From NCBI RefSeq assembly GCF_958453765.1, contig NZ_CAUDZA010000007.1, positions 19,623 through 43,622 of the forward strand: a stretch of 24,000 nt of DNA. Direction: 5' to 3'. Made by a program: the position numbers and the translations under genes. Positions 2,734 through 16,712 of the stretch are shown piece by piece. Numbering within the stretch: the stretch's first letter is position 1; each line of letters opens with the position of its first letter. This DNA is from Phascolarctobacterium succinatutens (GTDB lineage: Bacteria; Bacillota; Negativicutes; Acidaminococcales; Acidaminococcaceae). The notes beneath the pieces are model-generated. The model was not told the origin of the DNA. It did no database searches and was given only the letters and a program-made list of their open reading frames with translations.

Positions 2734-3771
2734 ATGACTTATCGTTTTAACAGTGATTACACCGAAGGCTGCCATCCTGCAGTCCTTGAAAAACTCGTGC
2801 AAACCAACATGGAGCAGACCGATGGCTACGGCCTTGATCCCTACTGCGACGAAGCACGTAAATTGATTAGAGAATCCTTCGCCTGCCCGAACGCTGACGT
2901 ACATTTTCTCGTTGGTGGCACCCAAACCAACCTGACGGTTATCTGCGCCGCCTTGCGTCCGCATCAGGCTGTTTACGGCGCTGTTCCCAGCCATATTAAT
3001 ACGCATGAGGCCGGTGCGATTGAGCATGTAGGTCACCGCGTACTGCCACTTCCGAGCGAGGACGGCAAGCTAACCGCAGAGCAAATCCGCCACGAATGGA
3101 AAATGTACGATACTGATCCAAGCCGTGAGCATTGGGCACAGCCGAAAATGGTTTATATCTCCCAACCGACTGAAATCGGCAGCATGTACAGCAAAAAAGA
3201 GCTGCAGGATTTATACCAGGCCTGCAAGGACTGCGGTCTTTACCTCTTTGTTGACGGCGCACGCTTAGGCTATGTTCTCGGCGCTCCCGACAACGATATG
3301 ACTGCTGCGGATTTAGCAGCAAACTGCGACGTTTTCTATATCGGCGGCACCAAATGCGGCCTGCTCTTCGGCGAAGCAGTTGTTATTTTGAACGATGCAC
3401 TTAAGCCTGACTTCCGCACTATTGCTAAGCAATGCGGTTCTATCATGGCCAAAGGACGTCTGCTCGGCGTACAGTTTGGCGCAATTATGAAAGATGACCT
3501 TTACAGCAAAATCTGCGGTAAGGGCACACTGCAGGCGCTGAAAATCCGTGATGCACTGTTAGCCAAAGGCTTCAAGTTCGTTACTGAATCCCCCACCAAC
3601 CAGCAATTTGTGATTATGACTCCGGCACAGTTTGAAAAGCTGAGCGAGGAATTTGCTCTCAGCCACATTGCTTATCTGGAGGACGGCAATTACAGCGTGC
3701 GCATCTGCACCAGCTGGGCAACCAAGGACGAAGAGGTTGACAGACTCATTGCTATGATCAACAAGCTGTAA
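2734..3771 (+). CDS. PLP-dependent threonine aldolase / beta-eliminating lyase family enzyme
   Basis: 345 aa, with GAGGGTG SD 8 nt upstream. N-terminus FNSDYTEGCHPAVLEKL...GYGLDPYC and the putative PLP-lysine context YIGGTKCGLLFGEAVV match the low-specificity threonine aldolase-like fold-type I family as I recall it. Confidence 0.7.
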   Translation: MTYRFNSDYTEGCHPAVLEKLVQTNMEQTDGYGLDPYCDEARKLIRESFACPNADVHFLVGGTQTNLTVICAALRPHQAVYGAVPSHINTHEAGAIEHVGHRVLPLPSEDGKLTAEQIRHEWKMYDTDPSREHWAQPKMVYISQPTEIGSMYSKKELQDLYQACKDCGLYLFVDGARLGYVLGAPDNDMTAADLAANCDVFYIGGTKCGLLFGEAVVILNDALKPDFRTIAKQCGSIMAKGRLLGVQFGAIMKDDLYSKICGKGTLQALKIRDALLAKGFKFVTESPTNQQFVIMTPAQFEKLSEEFALSHIAYLEDGNYSVRICTSWATKDEEVDRLIAMINKL

Positions 3772-3773
3772 GC

Positions 3774-3801
3774 TTGACAGAAAACGTAAATTTGCTATAA
3801 T
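3774..3801 (+). promoter_or_regulatory. Near-consensus sigma-A promoter directly after the aldolase stop codon
   Basis: TTGACA (3774-3779), 16-nt spacer, TATAAT (3796-3801). No protein-coding ORF with an SD follows it. Confidence 0.5.
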
Positions 3802-3807
3802 AAAAAT

Positions 3808-3902
3808 AAAGAGAGACTCTGACAGTCGCGTGTCAGCCCTCTCTGTTGATTGTTGTTATTTGACAAAAGGCTGACATTGACCTCTAATGTCGGTCTTTTG
3901 TT
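3808..3902 (+). ncRNA. Candidate ~95-nt sRNA (possible type I antitoxin), convergent with the small toxin-like ORF
   Basis: It is bounded by the promoter above and the hairpin plus T-run at 3869-3902. An internal two-tier hairpin pairs AGAGAG/CTCTCT (3810-3815 with 3839-3844) and CTGACA/TGTCAG (3819-3824 with 3831-3836). The ends are inferred, not measured. Confidence 0.3.
3869..3895. terminator. Bidirectional intrinsic terminator shared by the sRNA candidate (+) and the small peptide gene (-)
   Basis: GGCTGACATT...AATGTCGGTC hairpin with G-U pairs. It is flanked by ACAAAA upstream and CTTTTGTT downstream, so a U-run follows the stem on both strands. Confidence 0.55.
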
Positions 3903-4128: not shown

Positions 4129-5328
4129 TTACTTCAACTTTTCTACAACGCTCTGCAGCTTTTCCTGCCAGTCGGCGCAATAATCCGCACCGCCCTGCGC
4201 GCAATCGCTCTTGCCGCCGCCACGGCCGCCAAAGGCTTCGTTGAGCAGCTTAATAACACTACGGCAATCGCCTGCAGTATCAGCCCCCAAAGCAACTGCG
4301 TAGCTGATGCGCTCAGGCTGCACTGCTACCAAAAGGCTCAGCGTGTTTTTCAAGGCAGTAACCTTCGGCAGAAAGGCTTTGATATCCTTGGCATCGTGAC
4401 CTTCCATAGGCAAAGCCAAAACCTTTACTCCATCAGCATTCACCGGTGCAGCAGCAAACGTTTCCTGCAGCTTTTCTTCTTCAATCTTCAGCAGCTTGCT
4501 CTTGGCAATGTCAAGCTGTGCAAGCAAATCATTTTTCTGCTTATTTACGGCAGCAGGCACCTGCTCGGGCTTTACGGAAAGACTTGCAGCGACGCTAAGT
4601 AATGTGCTGTTCTTGGCATCAGCATCCAATAGCGCTCTGCGGCCGCAGACAAACTCTACGCGGCAACCACCCTTATGCTTTTCATGACGGATGACCTTAA
4701 CACTGCCCAGCATCCCTGTAAATGGTGGATGCGTACCACAGCAGGTGCAGATATCGGCGTCCTCAACCGAAACAATACGCAACGTGCCTGTCAGCTTGCT
4801 GTTGAACTTACGCATTTTATCCTTCAGCTTGACAGCCTCTGTGCTGTCCATATAGCTGATATGTACCGGGCGATTCTCCCAGATGATTTCATTCGTATAT
4901 AATTCTGCCTGCAGCAGCTCCTCGTCCGTCAGCTCCTTATCAAGGTCAATGAAAACATCATCCTCATTCATGTGGAAGCCGATATTGTTGGCCTTAAACA
5001 GCTTCCAGCAGGCGTAGGACAAAAGATGCTCGCCCAAATGCTGCTGCATTCTGTCCAGACGCACAGGCCAGTCCAGCACAGCCTCTGCCTCGGCACCAAC
5101 CTCCAACGGCTTGTCGCACTCATGGTAAATGTGACCATCCTTTTCACTTACATGGCTTACGACCGCATCAGCCAGCTTGCCTCTGTCGCTCAGCTGACCG
5201 CCTCCCTCCGGAAAGAAAACCGTCTGGTCAAGCTCAACCAGATATTTGCCATCCTTAGGCGTGCAGGCCGTAACCTTCGCCACGCACTGTTTGAGCAAAG
5301 AATTATTTTCAAAAAGCTTAATTGTCAT
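4129..5328 (-). CDS. alaX: AlaX-L type alanyl-tRNA editing protein (AlaRS second additional domain + DHHA1-like C-terminus)
   Basis: 399 aa, with GAGGGGG SD. Zinc/editing motifs HxxxH (HLGEHLL) and CxxxH (CCGTH) are present in the expected order, followed by a C-terminal GGRGGGK stretch typical of the DHHA1 region. Confidence 0.75.
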   Translation of the reverse strand: MTIKLFENNSLLKQCVAKVTACTPKDGKYLVELDQTVFFPEGGGQLSDRGKLADAVVSHVSEKDGHIYHECDKPLEVGAEAEAVLDWPVRLDRMQQHLGEHLLSYACWKLFKANNIGFHMNEDDVFIDLDKELTDEELLQAELYTNEIIWENRPVHISYMDSTEAVKLKDKMRKFNSKLTGTLRIVSVEDADICTCCGTHPPFTGMLGSVKVIRHEKHKGGCRVEFVCGRRALLDADAKNSTLLSVAASLSVKPEQVPAAVNKQKNDLLAQLDIAKSKLLKIEEEKLQETFAAAPVNADGVKVLALPMEGHDAKDIKAFLPKVTALKNTLSLLVAVQPERISYAVALGADTAGDCRSVIKLLNEAFGGRGGGKSDCAQGGADYCADWQEKLQSVVEKLK

Positions 5329-6119: not shown

Positions 6120-6151
6120 GAACGAATTTAACACGCAAAGGTGATAATATT

Positions 6152-6844
6152 ATGCATATTTACGCAATCGGTGACCTGCATTTATCAGGCGAACCGGCGA
6201 GCAAGCCCATGGAGGTTTTCGGCGAGCATTGGCGCAACCATAAAGAAAAGGTTGCCGCTAATTGGCAAAACACCGTAACCGCACAGGATACAGTCATTGT
6301 CTGCGGTGACATTTCCTGGGCCATGACTTTGGAAGAAGCAGCACAGGATTTAGACTGGCTGGCACAGCTTCCCGGTCGCAAGCTGCTGCTGCGCGGTAAC
6401 CACGACTACTGGTGGAGCAGCCTGAGCAAAATGCAGCAGCGTTACGGTGCTCATTTTGAATTTCTGCAGAACGACTGCATTATGGTAGAAGATATTGCTG
6501 TCTGCGGCACCCGCGGCTGGCTGCTGCCCTCAGCCGAAAGCTTCAGTGACGCCGACAGAAAAATTTACAATCGCGAAGGTATACGCCTGGAGCTTTCCCT
6601 GCAGCAGGCACATAAAATGCAGGCACAGCAGATAATTACGGCCTTTCACTATCCGCCGCTTTTTGCACGCACGGAGCATACCTGCTTTACTAATCTGATG
6701 CTGCGGTACGGTGTGCAGCACTGTGTCTACGGCCACATTCACGGTGAAAACCACATTCCCGTTTTTGAAGGATTGCGCGAAGGAATCAACTACAAGCTGG
6801 TTTCCTGCGATACGCAAGGCTTTCAGCTTTACAAGGTAATATAA
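6152..6844 (+). CDS. Calcineurin-like metallophosphoesterase
   Basis: 230 aa. Metallophosphoesterase motifs appear in the canonical order: GDLHL, GDISW, GNHDYW, GHIHG. Confidence 0.8.
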   Translation: MHIYAIGDLHLSGEPASKPMEVFGEHWRNHKEKVAANWQNTVTAQDTVIVCGDISWAMTLEEAAQDLDWLAQLPGRKLLLRGNHDYWWSSLSKMQQRYGAHFEFLQNDCIMVEDIAVCGTRGWLLPSAESFSDADRKIYNREGIRLELSLQQAHKMQAQQIITAFHYPPLFARTEHTCFTNLMLRYGVQHCVYGHIHGENHIPVFEGLREGINYKLVSCDTQGFQLYKVI

Positions 6845-14453: not shown

Positions 14454-14497
14454 AAAAGCACCCTCCGCCGCCGCTTTCACGGCAGCAGAGAGTGCGC
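14454..14497 (-). repeat. Left copy of the direct repeat; also the intrinsic terminator of the islet's last gene
   Basis: AAAAGCACCCTCCGCCGCCGCTTTCACGGCAGCAGAGAGTGCGC matches 16649-16694 at 41 of 46 aligned columns, and the 3' 23 nt are identical. Minus-strand RNA forms a ~15-bp G-C/G-U stem followed by a U-rich run CUUUUCCUUU. Confidence 0.75.
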
Positions 14498-14505
14498 GAA
14501 AATCT

Positions 14506-15108
14506 CTATATTCCAGCGTACTTATTATGCCTATATAATTCGACGCTGCTAACTAAACCTTTACTAACAACTTTCTTCTCTTTCAACAACACAGTATATT
14601 GAGTCTGTCTCGTGCTGTAATCATACGCAGTTTCTTGAAATATAGAATTCATACAATATTTCTTGTCTGTTCTCACAAAGAAAGAAAATACTATGGGTTC
14701 ATTGGCAAGCATCCCTTTTGCTAAATAATCAGCTGTTATTCTTGTAGCAAATGCAACCCTGTTCTTATCATAAGAATAAAATTTCGTTTCCTGAGCATCT
14801 ATAACCTGTTCTAAAATTTTCAAGGAATATAAGCGTTCTTCTAATATCGAAAAATTTTTATCACTTGCAATCACATCACTTGTAACTGTTCCGTTGAGAA
14901 TATGCTCTAATATCCACGTACTAGTCCGTTGCTGAAACGAGTATCTTTGCTTTAGTTTATGAAAGCCAGCTAAATGATAAAAGTTTTCTGGCATAAAAAC
15001 GATATTCAAATCAAAAGTATTACCCTTTCTACCCAAAACAATATGATACTCAACTGCTATCAAATTTTTATATGCCTGAGCCGCCATCAATAAAATATCT
15101 CGTCCCAT
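14506..15108 (-). CDS. 200-aa protein, tentatively PBECR4-like (Barnase-EndoU-ColicinE5/D-RelE fold) predicted RNase
   Basis: AAAGGGGA SD. The ORF is clean in an AT-rich context. N-terminal AYKNLIAVEYHIVLGRKGNTFDLNIVFMPENFYHLAGFHKL and C-terminal YTVLLKEKK resemble PBECR4-domain proteins as I remember them. No alignment was computed. I am confident the ORF is real (~0.85); the confidence given here is for the family assignment. Confidence 0.5.
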   Translation of the reverse strand: MGRDILLMAAQAYKNLIAVEYHIVLGRKGNTFDLNIVFMPENFYHLAGFHKLKQRYSFQQRTSTWILEHILNGTVTSDVIASDKNFSILEERLYSLKILEQVIDAQETKFYSYDKNRVAFATRITADYLAKGMLANEPIVFSFFVRTDKKYCMNSIFQETAYDYSTRQTQYTVLLKEKKVVSKGLVSSVELYRHNKYAGI

Positions 15109-15130
15109 AAATCCCCTTTCTTAAATAAGC

Positions 15131-15317
15131 AAAATGGACACTACCGAGAAAATAGTGTCCATCTGCATTTTGCTATTTTTATGTCTGCACACGAACGTAC
15201 ATAAGTCAGGTTGAGGTTTCTATAGCAAAACCCTACATAAAGCTCCTCCAAGTCCCGCATCCTGACACGCTTCTTGGCATCACCACTTATACTGACACAC
15301 TCCGTTGCCAGTTCTCT
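15131..15317 (-). ncRNA. Candidate structured non-coding leader/sRNA (~185 nt) between its own promoter and the hairpin above
   Basis: No SD-preceded ORF is present. An imperfect ~22-bp hairpin spans 15205-15266 (GTCAGG/CCTGAC, TTGAGG/CCTCCAA, TTTCTATAG/CTACATAAA). A second helix pairs 15306-15310 with 15275-15279. G+C is visibly higher than in the flanking islet genes. The ends are inferred. Confidence 0.3.
15134..15162 (-). terminator. Terminator/attenuator hairpin 25 nt upstream of the RNase-like gene start
   Basis: Minus-strand RNA AUGGACACUA-N9-UAGUGUCCAU forms a perfect 10-bp stem, followed by UUUGCUUAUUU, then AAAGGGGA and the ATG. Confidence 0.5.
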
Positions 15318-15323
15318 ATTCAT

Positions 15324-15352
15324 ATCTTACTATACATAACTGAACTTGTCAA
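15324..15352 (-). promoter_or_regulatory. Sigma-A promoter inside the islet
   Basis: Minus strand: TTGACA (15352-15347), 17-nt spacer, TAAGAT (15329-15324). Confidence 0.5.
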
Positions 15353-15513
15353 ATTTTTCTTTCCCTACTTCTCCACCAACACCTTATACATTTTCATCAG
15401 CTCTGCTACGCACGTCGCTTCGCTGTTAAGCCTGCCCCCAAAGCCATACGCTTCCATGACAGTTATGTACTTCGCTATGTTTAGTACATTTATGTATTAC
15501 ACATTGAATATTC

Positions 15514-16458
15514 TCACTCCTCTATCTCAATCCCCATGATAGGTCCCCAATCAGCCAAAGTTCTTTCAGACGTTGGACTTTTAATATATACATGTAACTT
15601 ATCAATATCAAATTCTAATCCTCTTGCACCATTCATTCCAGCATATGTCTTTACCACTCTCTCCACAACTATTTCTTTTTGCCCCTTATTCAAATAATAC
15701 CAATTAGAATTTACATAAACAACAACAAAATATTGCCCTCTAAATCTGCATCCATCATATAGGCCATTTAGAGTATTACTAAGGACTTTATCATATGATT
15801 CTATTAATTCTTTTAATACTGCTGCATCAACAATTTTTTTCTTTTCCTCTTCTATTTCTGGCGTTTTATTTTTTGTTACGTCCACAACTCTATTTTCACT
15901 AGTTTGATTTTCTATCTTTTTATTTTCTACACTAGTTGTACAAGGAACAAATTTCACTAACAAAAACATAATTACACCAAAAATTGCATATACTGTTAAT
16001 GCAACCCATTTGGTACTTTTAAATAAATCAGGATATAATTTTTCTATCTCTACTCTTTTTTCATTATCAAATCTACGACACTTTCCAATATACTCATCAA
16101 TAGAATCCACATATTTAAATTTAAGTTCTAACTCATCTCCTAACGACTTCATCAAATCACAAAGATCTAACATCTCCAATTTAATTTCAACATTAACTTT
16201 ATCTGTTTTAAGTTTTTCCCCTTTCAAGATAGAAAATTCCTTTTCAGCATAATTTTCACACTTGTTCACTATATCAGTAATAGCTAACGTTCTATCTATA
16301 CCATAATCATTTTCTATTAACTTAAATGACATCAAAACACATTTTTTTAAATTCTTAGCAGCTTTATGTCGAGCTATCTCTCCATTTACAATGCTATTAT
16401 ATGTAGTGTAAAATACTGATTCCCAATTATCCTTTGAATACTCATCCACAAATATCAC
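15514..16458 (-). CDS. 314-aa single-pass membrane protein of unknown function
   Basis: N-terminal ~150-aa helical-looking domain, one TM helix (WVALTVYAIFGVIMFLLVKFV), a K/E/N-rich linker, and a C-terminal ~105-aa domain (GQYFVVVYVNSNWYYLNKGQKEIVVERVV...). I recognise no family. The start is uncertain: GTG 16458 sits only 1 nt after GGAAAGG, GTG 16449 is an alternative, and a strong SD+ATG at 16492 is out of frame. Confidence 0.75.
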   Translation of the reverse strand: MIFVDEYSKDNWESVFYTTYNSIVNGEIARHKAAKNLKKCVLMSFKLIENDYGIDRTLAITDIVNKCENYAEKEFSILKGEKLKTDKVNVEIKLEMLDLCDLMKSLGDELELKFKYVDSIDEYIGKCRRFDNEKRVEIEKLYPDLFKSTKWVALTVYAIFGVIMFLLVKFVPCTTSVENKKIENQTSENRVVDVTKNKTPEIEEEKKKIVDAAVLKELIESYDKVLSNTLNGLYDGCRFRGQYFVVVYVNSNWYYLNKGQKEIVVERVVKTYAGMNGARGLEFDIDKLHVYIKSPTSERTLADWGPIMGIEIEE

Positions 16459-16648: not shown

Positions 16649-16694
16649 AAAAGCGCACCCCCTGCCGCCGTTTTCACGGCAGCAGAGAGTGCGC
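16649..16694 (-). terminator. clpB intrinsic terminator; right copy of the direct repeat
   Basis: Minus-strand RNA GCGCACUCUCUGCUGCCG-UGAAAA-CGGCGGCAGGGGGUGCGC forms an 18-bp stem with 3 G-U pairs, followed by UUUUUGUGUG. It lies 18 nt after the clpB stop. Confidence 0.8.
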
Positions 16695-16712
16695 CAAGTC
16701 TCACAGCATATT

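Follow-up and report, generated by a model that had tools for sequence, protein, structure and literature searches.

A drum RNA and a PBECR4 gene in Phascolarctobacterium succinatutens: a candidate type III-like toxin-antitoxin module

The stretch of DNA considered here, hereafter the window, comprises 24,000 nucleotides (nt) of the Phascolarctobacterium succinatutens contig NZ_CAUDZA010000007.1 and carries, on its minus strand, a small-RNA gene followed directly by a gene of the PBECR4 family, whose product is a predicted ribonuclease (RNase). The order in the direction of transcription is promoter, RNA of ~190 nt, terminator, Shine-Dalgarno (SD) sequence and PBECR4 gene, with an open reading frame (ORF) of 314 amino acids (aa; 15514–16458) on one side and the 200-aa ORF of PBECR4 itself forming the other end; the two-gene module measures ~850 bp (Table 1). 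An initial annotation of this DNA, made from the letters alone, had described the promoter, a perfect 10-bp terminator stem with its tail, and the SD and ATG of an RNase gene 25 nt beyond that stem, all of which are present. The stem pairs 15162–15153 with 15143–15134 and can be extended to 14 pairs over 15164–15132, the tail directly after it reads UUUUGCUUAUUU, and the ATG at 15108 stands behind AAAGGGG. The gap between terminator and SD is too short to hold a promoter, leaving the PBECR4 gene without one of its own. Positions 15121–15352 of the minus strand are a self-contained small-RNA gene, made up of a promoter, a 5' hairpin, a pseudoknotted core and an intrinsic terminator. With a G+C content of 0.43 the RNA is richer in G+C than the genes around it, as had been noticed initially (0.33 for PBECR4 and 0.295 for the 314-aa ORF), the neighbouring purE and clpB being at 0.49. 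A 198-nt stretch of the region folds with a z-score of -2.4 relative to shuffled sequences, and 3 of 200 shuffles folded equally well.

The RNA belongs to the drum family (RF02958), matching positions 1–112 of the 112-position model with 64.5 bits, against a gathering score of 43 (E 3.3e-10). This is the only Rfam match in the whole window, and the same scan matched the window RNA to no ribozyme family. The drum motif was described by Weinberg et al. in 2017 as an RNA with a 3' intrinsic terminator and an associated protein gene nearby, and its conservation was taken to indicate a "sophisticated biochemical function" (PMC5737381). Both features return here, with the terminator found in the window copy and in nearly all of 39 distinct related loci, and PBECR4 lying downstream of drum in 59 of the 67 loci scanned. 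The initial annotation did not recognise the motif, and its statement that no example of an RNA paired with a BECR-fold protein had been described was too strong. The window RNA is a full-length member of drum as published and not different in kind; what is added for the family is the 5' hairpin outside the model, a loop-to-tail pseudoknot, the fixed distance to the promoter, PBECR4 as a named partner, and a position that, in the sampled loci, is strictly upstream of the gene and on its strand.

The downstream protein is a member of the PBECR4 family (PF18813; E 5e-24, 86.1 bits against a gathering score of 27, residues 5–183), which agrees with the RNase predicted initially. Four residues, H45, H50, K51 and T172, are invariant in 24 homologues, H45 and H50 lying in or just after a predicted helix (40–47) and T172 in a strand (169–182). 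The active site of BECR-fold RNases, which are common as toxins, has been proposed to consist of His plus Thr/Ser (PMC5512222), and the invariant residues fit this proposal. The AlphaFold2 model has a pLDDT of 93, and the protein is predicted to be a metal-independent endoribonuclease (endoRNase). Hits to RelE-like proteins in the PDB (HP0894, BrnT and ParE2) had E values of 0.4–1.5, which is not significant, and were not used as evidence. In PHROGs the protein matched only one family of unknown function (E 2e-4), NCBIfam gave nothing useful, and Pfam hits with E up to 1 were limited to PBECR4 and one chance hit, with no similarity to DUF3800; a link between PBECR4 and DUF3800 is supported neither by Pfam nor by a fold search of the PDB. 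The family has ~1,230 representatives at 50% identity, those listed being mostly stand-alone and ~200 aa long.

The association of RNA and protein was followed from the protein side in 88 loci, taken from species-representative genomes, metagenomes, IMG/VR and PLSDB plasmids, of which 67 were scanned with Rfam. In the species-representative genomes a pattern taken from one protein retrieved no relative, and an alignment-based search was used instead; tblastn against a phage GenBank collection gave no match. In the 59 loci with a drum RNA above the gathering score, the RNA is on the strand of the gene and ends about 40–80 nt before its start codon, and the linkage persists down to ~27% protein identity. 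Among the linked hosts are Dialister, Anaerovibrio, Selenomonas, Phascolarctobacterium, Ruminococcus, Lachnospiraceae, Peptococcaceae, Spirochaetales, and Enterococcus and Streptococcus plasmids. The module extends over Negativicutes, Clostridia, Bacilli and Spirochaetales, on chromosomes as well as on plasmids and phage contigs. A further four of the 67 loci have a sub-threshold drum in the same position, and the remainder are one locus cut by the contig end, one without a hit, and two (L018 and L019) with a different RNA-like element. No PBECR4 homologue with intact upstream sequence was found to be without an RNA-like element, the call for locus L071 being made only by reading the sequence.

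The remaining parts of the layout are conserved as well. In nearly all of the 39 distinct loci a hairpin followed by a U tract separates the drum model from the SD, with stems that are lineage-specific and no room for a promoter before the SD, and in most related loci a -35/-10 pair ends 29–38 nt before the start of the Rfam model. An all-against-all comparison of flanking ORFs found no other neighbouring protein conserved across lineages, and the module therefore consists of the RNA and PBECR4.

Some of these loci depart from the common arrangement. In L018 (~2010–2140), L019 (~2765–2890) and L112 (minus strand, ~4146–4169) another conserved RNA-like element of ~130 nt precedes a divergent PBECR4 and fills the slot from promoter to terminator; its sequence opens with ACGGGAGNUGGUAGCCCCAGCCUAGCUUCGGCG, its two hairpins vary in stem sequence but remain paired, and it had no match in Rfam 15 at E up to 1. 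L011 holds tandem modules, a second drum (3707–3814) with terminator and an apparently frameshifted PBECR4 paralogue following directly after the first gene. Annotated PBECR4 genes of Streptococcus suis and Enterococcus plasmids (L086–L088) have an upstream drum that is shorter and without the P3 hairpin, and neighbours there include AbiH, an AAA ATPase with DUF6414, recombinases, ssb and a Y-family polymerase. Four database calls (P0009, P0011, P0019 and P0022) start PBECR4 inside the terminator hairpin or drum, and N-terminal extensions such as "MDxIFSVVSILF..." or "...GFRYANLNLT..." are translated RNA and not protein. Gene calls of this kind, beginning inside the terminator or the RNA, are wrong.

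Base pairing was assessed in two alignments, A2 with 27 distinct drum copies and A3 with 43. The proposed structure, which joins window-derived pairings to the Rfam consensus, is paired in 81.7% (A2) and 77.6% (A3) of cells, a score somewhat favoured by its derivation from one of the aligned sequences; column-shuffle controls gave 64.3% and 61.5%, with none of 500 reaching the observed value, and slid partners gave 50.5% or less. The 5' hairpin, P0, which lies between the transcription start and the drum model and has the loop consensus AAC...GUGU, covaries at six of six pairs on A2 and five of six on A3 (78–85% of cells paired), and it is also found in the orphan phage copies described below. 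It displaces a 5-bp helix drawn initially between 15306–15310 and 15275–15279, which competes with it, the conserved pairing being 15312–15307 with 15296–15291. In PK1, between GUCAGG and CCUGAC, all six pairs covary, 85–86% of cells are paired and most pairs show 13–16 double changes, which supports a predicted loop-to-tail pseudoknot that closes over the P1a hairpin of Rfam and goes beyond the structure line given by cmscan. These base pairs had been seen initially as part of an imperfect ~22-bp hairpin at 15205–15266; the pairs are retained, but the local hairpin is really a pseudoknot over P1a. Similarly, two copies of GTGTCAG that had been put forward as a weak repeat are the 3' arm of P0 and the pseudoknot loop. 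The Rfam helices P2 and P3 were poorly aligned by MAFFT (41–58% paired) and nothing beyond the Rfam model is claimed for them, and a GGG/ACC pairing (15231–15233 with 15215–15217) is conserved but nearly invariant. The initial annotation had made its proposal depend on conservation and covariation upstream of homologous genes, and both were found.

The terminator loop was also looked at. In Negativicutes terminators (the window copy at 15132–15164, and L001, L003, L009, L029 and L052) the loop keeps YUUCUC whilst the stem varies, and this loop is complementary to the conserved GAGAA near the 5' end (15314–15318) and to GAGAAG in P1a. Across clades a contact between the loop and the drum RNA showed no covariation, and outside the Negativicutes clade it had no equivalent; it was rejected.

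Approached from the RNA side, the picture is different. A pattern made from the 3' core of drum retrieved 13 IMG/VR contigs, all 13 of which were confirmed as drum at 65–100 bits, yet PBECR4 lies beside the RNA in only three of them, even with a broadened hidden Markov model, and is not found nearby in the other ten. Some of these orphan drums have their own promoter and terminator, with neighbours that include an integrase and a HipA kinase. In five contigs, representing three distinct sequences, drum lies inside a phage tRNA gene array on the strand of the tRNAs (Table 1), starting 4 nt past the CCA end of one tRNA or stopping 2 nt before the next. One of these arrays (L095) also contains a skipping-rope RNA (RF02924) at 6142–6233, and the L097 contig has a group I intron at 3360–3610. 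The orphan copies show that the RNA can exist and can be produced in the absence of the protein. Drum often occurs by itself, whereas no PBECR4 was found that lacked an RNA element upstream, an asymmetry that is expected of a toxin and its antidote.

Table 1. Features of the drum-PBECR4 module in the window, and drum copies in phage tRNA gene arrays of other contigs.
Feature	Position	Strand	Basis or remark
Sigma-70-type promoter, TTGACA-17-TAAGAT	15324..15352	minus	10/12 matches; transcription start probably near 15317
5' hairpin P0, ACUGGC / loop AACGGAGUGU / GUCAGU	15291..15312	minus	Conserved, outside the Rfam drum model; RNAalifold on A2
Drum RNA core	15167..15288	minus	RF02958 match, model positions 1–112
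Pseudoknot PK1, 5' arm GUCAGG, in the loop of hairpin P1a	15261..15266	minus	Covariation with 15205–15210
Pseudoknot PK1, 3' arm CCUGAC	15205..15210	minus	Covariation with 15261–15266
Intrinsic terminator, stem-loop 15164–15132 and U-rich tail	15121..15164	minus	Computed prediction
SD sequence AAAGGGG of the PBECR4 gene	15113..15119	minus	Direct sequence inspection
PBECR4 gene, 200 aa, predicted BECR-fold endoRNase	14506..15108	minus	Pfam PF18813
Module-closing terminator, right-hand copy of the islet-bounding 43-nt direct repeat	14458..14495	minus	
Drum copies in phage tRNA gene arrays	L091 127–234; L093 4035–4142; L098 4842–4949; L095 4289–4397; L097 2850–2956		

In the window the module occupies a 2.2-kb, AT-rich islet bounded by 43-nt direct repeats (14458–14500 and 16655–16697, 91% identity) that are near-identical terminator hairpins, and this islet sits in a polymorphic slot between clpB and purE. 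Among the ten places shown in contigs with an identical PurE, eight hold a pair made up of a 92-aa gene and a DUF4160 gene, one holds the 92-aa gene only, and one holds a 224-aa gene with a YadA-anchor gene. As the contents of the slot vary, the module is therefore strain-variable accessory cargo. The 314-aa ORF, on the minus strand, has one predicted membrane helix and matches nothing in Pfam, PADLOC, PHROGs or NCBIfam. The possibility that it is a third part of the module was rejected, as it lies next to PBECR4 only within the same species. The spacer between this ORF and the promoter (15353–15513, minus strand) contains a 30-codon ORF (MEAYGFGGRLNSEATCVAELMKMYKVLVEK) without a family match, which may be a gene remnant.

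The conserved layout of promoter, RNA, terminator and predicted RNase makes a type III toxin-antitoxin (TA) reading the best available, and we give about an even chance to the proposal that drum and PBECR4 form a type III-like TA or abortive-infection module with a single, non-repeated RNA, against which the orphan phage drums act as decoys. Transcription from the one promoter would mostly stop at the terminator, so that drum RNA of ~190 nt accumulates in excess, and a minority of read-through would yield PBECR4. The RNA would then bind the protein and hold the RNase inactive, as an inhibitor or as a pseudo-substrate. If a phage took over the cell or the element was lost, transcription of the module would cease, the RNA would decay and the RNase would be freed; orphan drums carried by phages may be decoys against such host modules. 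The anatomy, its conservation and the protein/RNA asymmetry were observed, whereas toxicity, binding, RNA lability and the decoy role are inferred. The plasmid copies, which adjoin AbiH and recombinases, and the AT-rich islet of the window copy in its polymorphic slot provide a context that was counted in favour of this proposal. A bolder version, which we hold as tentative and rather doubtful, is that a colicin-D-type BECR RNase, which may target tRNA, has in drum its antidote or pseudo-substrate, the first RNA in this role that is single-copy and pseudoknotted, that the phage orphans, some of them freed by tRNA processing, are decoys, and that the RNA of L018, L019 and L112 is a second class of antidote arising from an arms race. 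There is precedent for phage tRNAs counteracting defences aimed at tRNA (PMC10264068; PMC11555353).

Several observations weigh against the TA proposal. The gene associated with drum can be on either side and on either strand (PMC5737381), which is a poor fit to a strict operon, and the pseudoknot and the many invariant bases seem more than a simple inhibitor needs. No tandem repeats were found in the RNA region by TRF at a minimum score of 30, as the initial annotation had already judged by eye. PBECR4 has no significant relative in the PDB, by fold (Foldseek) or by sequence profile, because of which the RNase assignment stays a prediction, and PADLOC does not match the protein. Locus L019 has a promoter-like site (TTGCAA-17-TATAAT) between terminator and gene, and the orphan drums in tRNA arrays could equally point to a stand-alone function of the RNA. 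Finally, neither functional work on drum after 2017 nor experiments on any drum RNA or PBECR4 protein were found in the literature, the sole paper found to mention PBECR4 listing a plasmid gene as upregulated.

Foremost among the rival explanations, albeit unlikely, is that drum is an obligatory subunit of a ribonucleoprotein with PBECR4, serving as scaffold, sensor, activator or specificity element, and that the complex rather than the free protein does the work, for example as a nuclease activated when a phage product binds or alters the RNA. This would account for the strict co-occurrence of RNA and protein in the protein-first loci, for the riboswitch-like complexity with its covarying pseudoknot, and for the biochemically demanding role suspected by the 2017 authors (PMC5737381). 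Indirectly, the ten of 13 RNA-first phage copies without PBECR4 nearby argue against it, as does an RNA excess driven by the terminator, which fits an inhibitor better than a stoichiometric subunit. Somewhat less probable again is a purely cis-acting leader, in which drum would be a riboswitch in the 5' untranslated region (UTR) or an autoregulatory site bound by PBECR4 that tunes termination or translation, with no role in trans. In all protein-first loci drum does stand in the same-strand 5' leader, followed by the terminator, and RCd22, an RNA discussed below, also lowers expression of its abiF gene in cis (10.1101/2025.04.15.648962). However, in the 39 distinct loci the terminator hairpin begins past the end of the drum model, wholly outside the conserved fold, with no mutually exclusive antiterminator apparent; drum is conserved whilst the terminator sequences are lineage-specific; and drum occurs free-standing or in tRNA arrays with no downstream gene to regulate. 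Neither a terminator overlapping the fold nor a consistent position in the 5' UTR of a regulated gene, as expected of a riboswitch or attenuator, was found, and motifs of the drum type have been called improbable riboswitches (PMC5737381). The attenuator-type leader suggested in the initial annotation is weakened by these findings.

The highly conserved nucleotides and pseudoknotted fold would also suit a catalytic or self-processing RNA whose product is needed by the mobile element, with PBECR4 as a helper, for example in end trimming, but no ribozyme family was matched and we consider this improbable. Least credible, to the point of being nearly negligible, is that the region encodes a 60-aa peptide or that RNA and gene are adjacent by accident. 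The sole ORF of the RNA region, correctly identified initially, does have 60 codons (15323–15141), and some database gene calls (P0019 and P0022) run through the region. This ORF has no SD, however, and its ATG abuts the -10 hexamer, so that it starts upstream of the expected start of transcription; the alignment has indels of lengths not divisible by three, which breaks the frame, and conservation follows base pairs instead. For these reasons it was rejected as a gene, and accidental adjacency cannot give 59 of 67 loci. In order of plausibility, the obligatory ribonucleoprotein is followed by the cis-acting leader, the catalytic RNA and the peptide gene.

Compared with known systems, the closest tested analogue of drum/PBECR4 is RCd22/AbiF of the Clostridioides difficile phage phi027. 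As in the module described here, a promoter (sigma-A) is followed by an RNA with an Rfam motif from Weinberg et al. (2017), a Rho-independent terminator, no second promoter, a ribosome-binding site and the toxin gene; both modules are on mobile elements and their RNAs are roughly 100–130 nt. RCd22 has been shown to neutralise its protein in cis and in trans, as a type III-like TA system (10.1101/2025.04.15.648962). The RNAs differ, RCd22 having two simple abiF hairpins (RF03085) whereas drum is a single pseudoknotted unit, and so do the proteins, AbiF being Abi_2/HEPN-like and PBECR4 of the BECR fold, with a function that is a prediction.

With the canonical type III systems ToxIN, CptIN and TenpIN, drum/PBECR4 shares a promoter, RNA, terminator and endoRNase gene in one unit, a predicted metal-independent RNase, and carriage by plasmids and phages. 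The antitoxins of those systems, however, are tandem direct repeats, whereas drum is single-copy and free of repeats, and PBECR4 is not ToxN/AbiQ, CptN or TenpN according to Pfam, with no ToxN-like PDB match by Foldseek. Because the repeat and the toxin family are both lacking, drum/PBECR4 is not a member of ToxIN, CptIN or TenpIN; the type III TA-like order claimed in the initial annotation is real and conserved far beyond chance, but it does not belong to a canonical type III family. It may still work like one. A phage pseudo-ToxI RNA defeats ToxIN (PMC3475682), and RNA decoys therefore exist. AvcI is an antitoxin without repeats, a small RNA that binds and inhibits its protein in a system activated by transcription shut-off (PMC10511110); there, in contrast, the toxin is a dCTP/dCMP deaminase and no terminator is predicted between avcI and avcD.

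Like drum, the DUF3800-associated motifs and skipping-rope are structured RNAs that end in a terminator, and each of them goes with a single protein family on mobile elements; several unrelated RNA folds serve the one DUF3800 family (PMC5737381), a parallel to the element before the divergent PBECR4 of L018, L019 and L112. An RNase H-like fold has been reported for DUF3800 (PMC10910872), whereas the PBECR4 model has no significant match to a solved structure. RelE, colicin D/E5 and CdiA-CT toxins resemble PBECR4 in predicted fold, in the His plus Thr/Ser pattern and in their roles in conflict systems (PMC5512222), but they are countered by a protein antitoxin or immunity protein, and no protein-coding partner is found upstream or downstream of PBECR4. 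A type II TA system of the RelE/ParE kind was rejected, there being no SD-preceded ORF upstream of PBECR4 within the RNA region and no conserved neighbour protein.

The window copy is thus another instance of the known, functionally uncharacterised pairing of drum with PBECR4. Should the mechanism be confirmed, type III TA would gain a new form. A true toxin-antidote relation would bring the BECR RNase fold and complex single-copy RNAs into the range of type III-like systems, and would explain the carriage of drum, and perhaps of skipping-rope, among phage tRNA genes. In 2017 drum was one of a handful of widespread bacterial RNAs set apart because their conservation points to a biochemically demanding task (PMC5737381). 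The question it poses has now become concrete, as a two-gene module with predicted RNA ends, a named partner with candidate catalytic residues, and a tested analogue in RCd22/AbiF.

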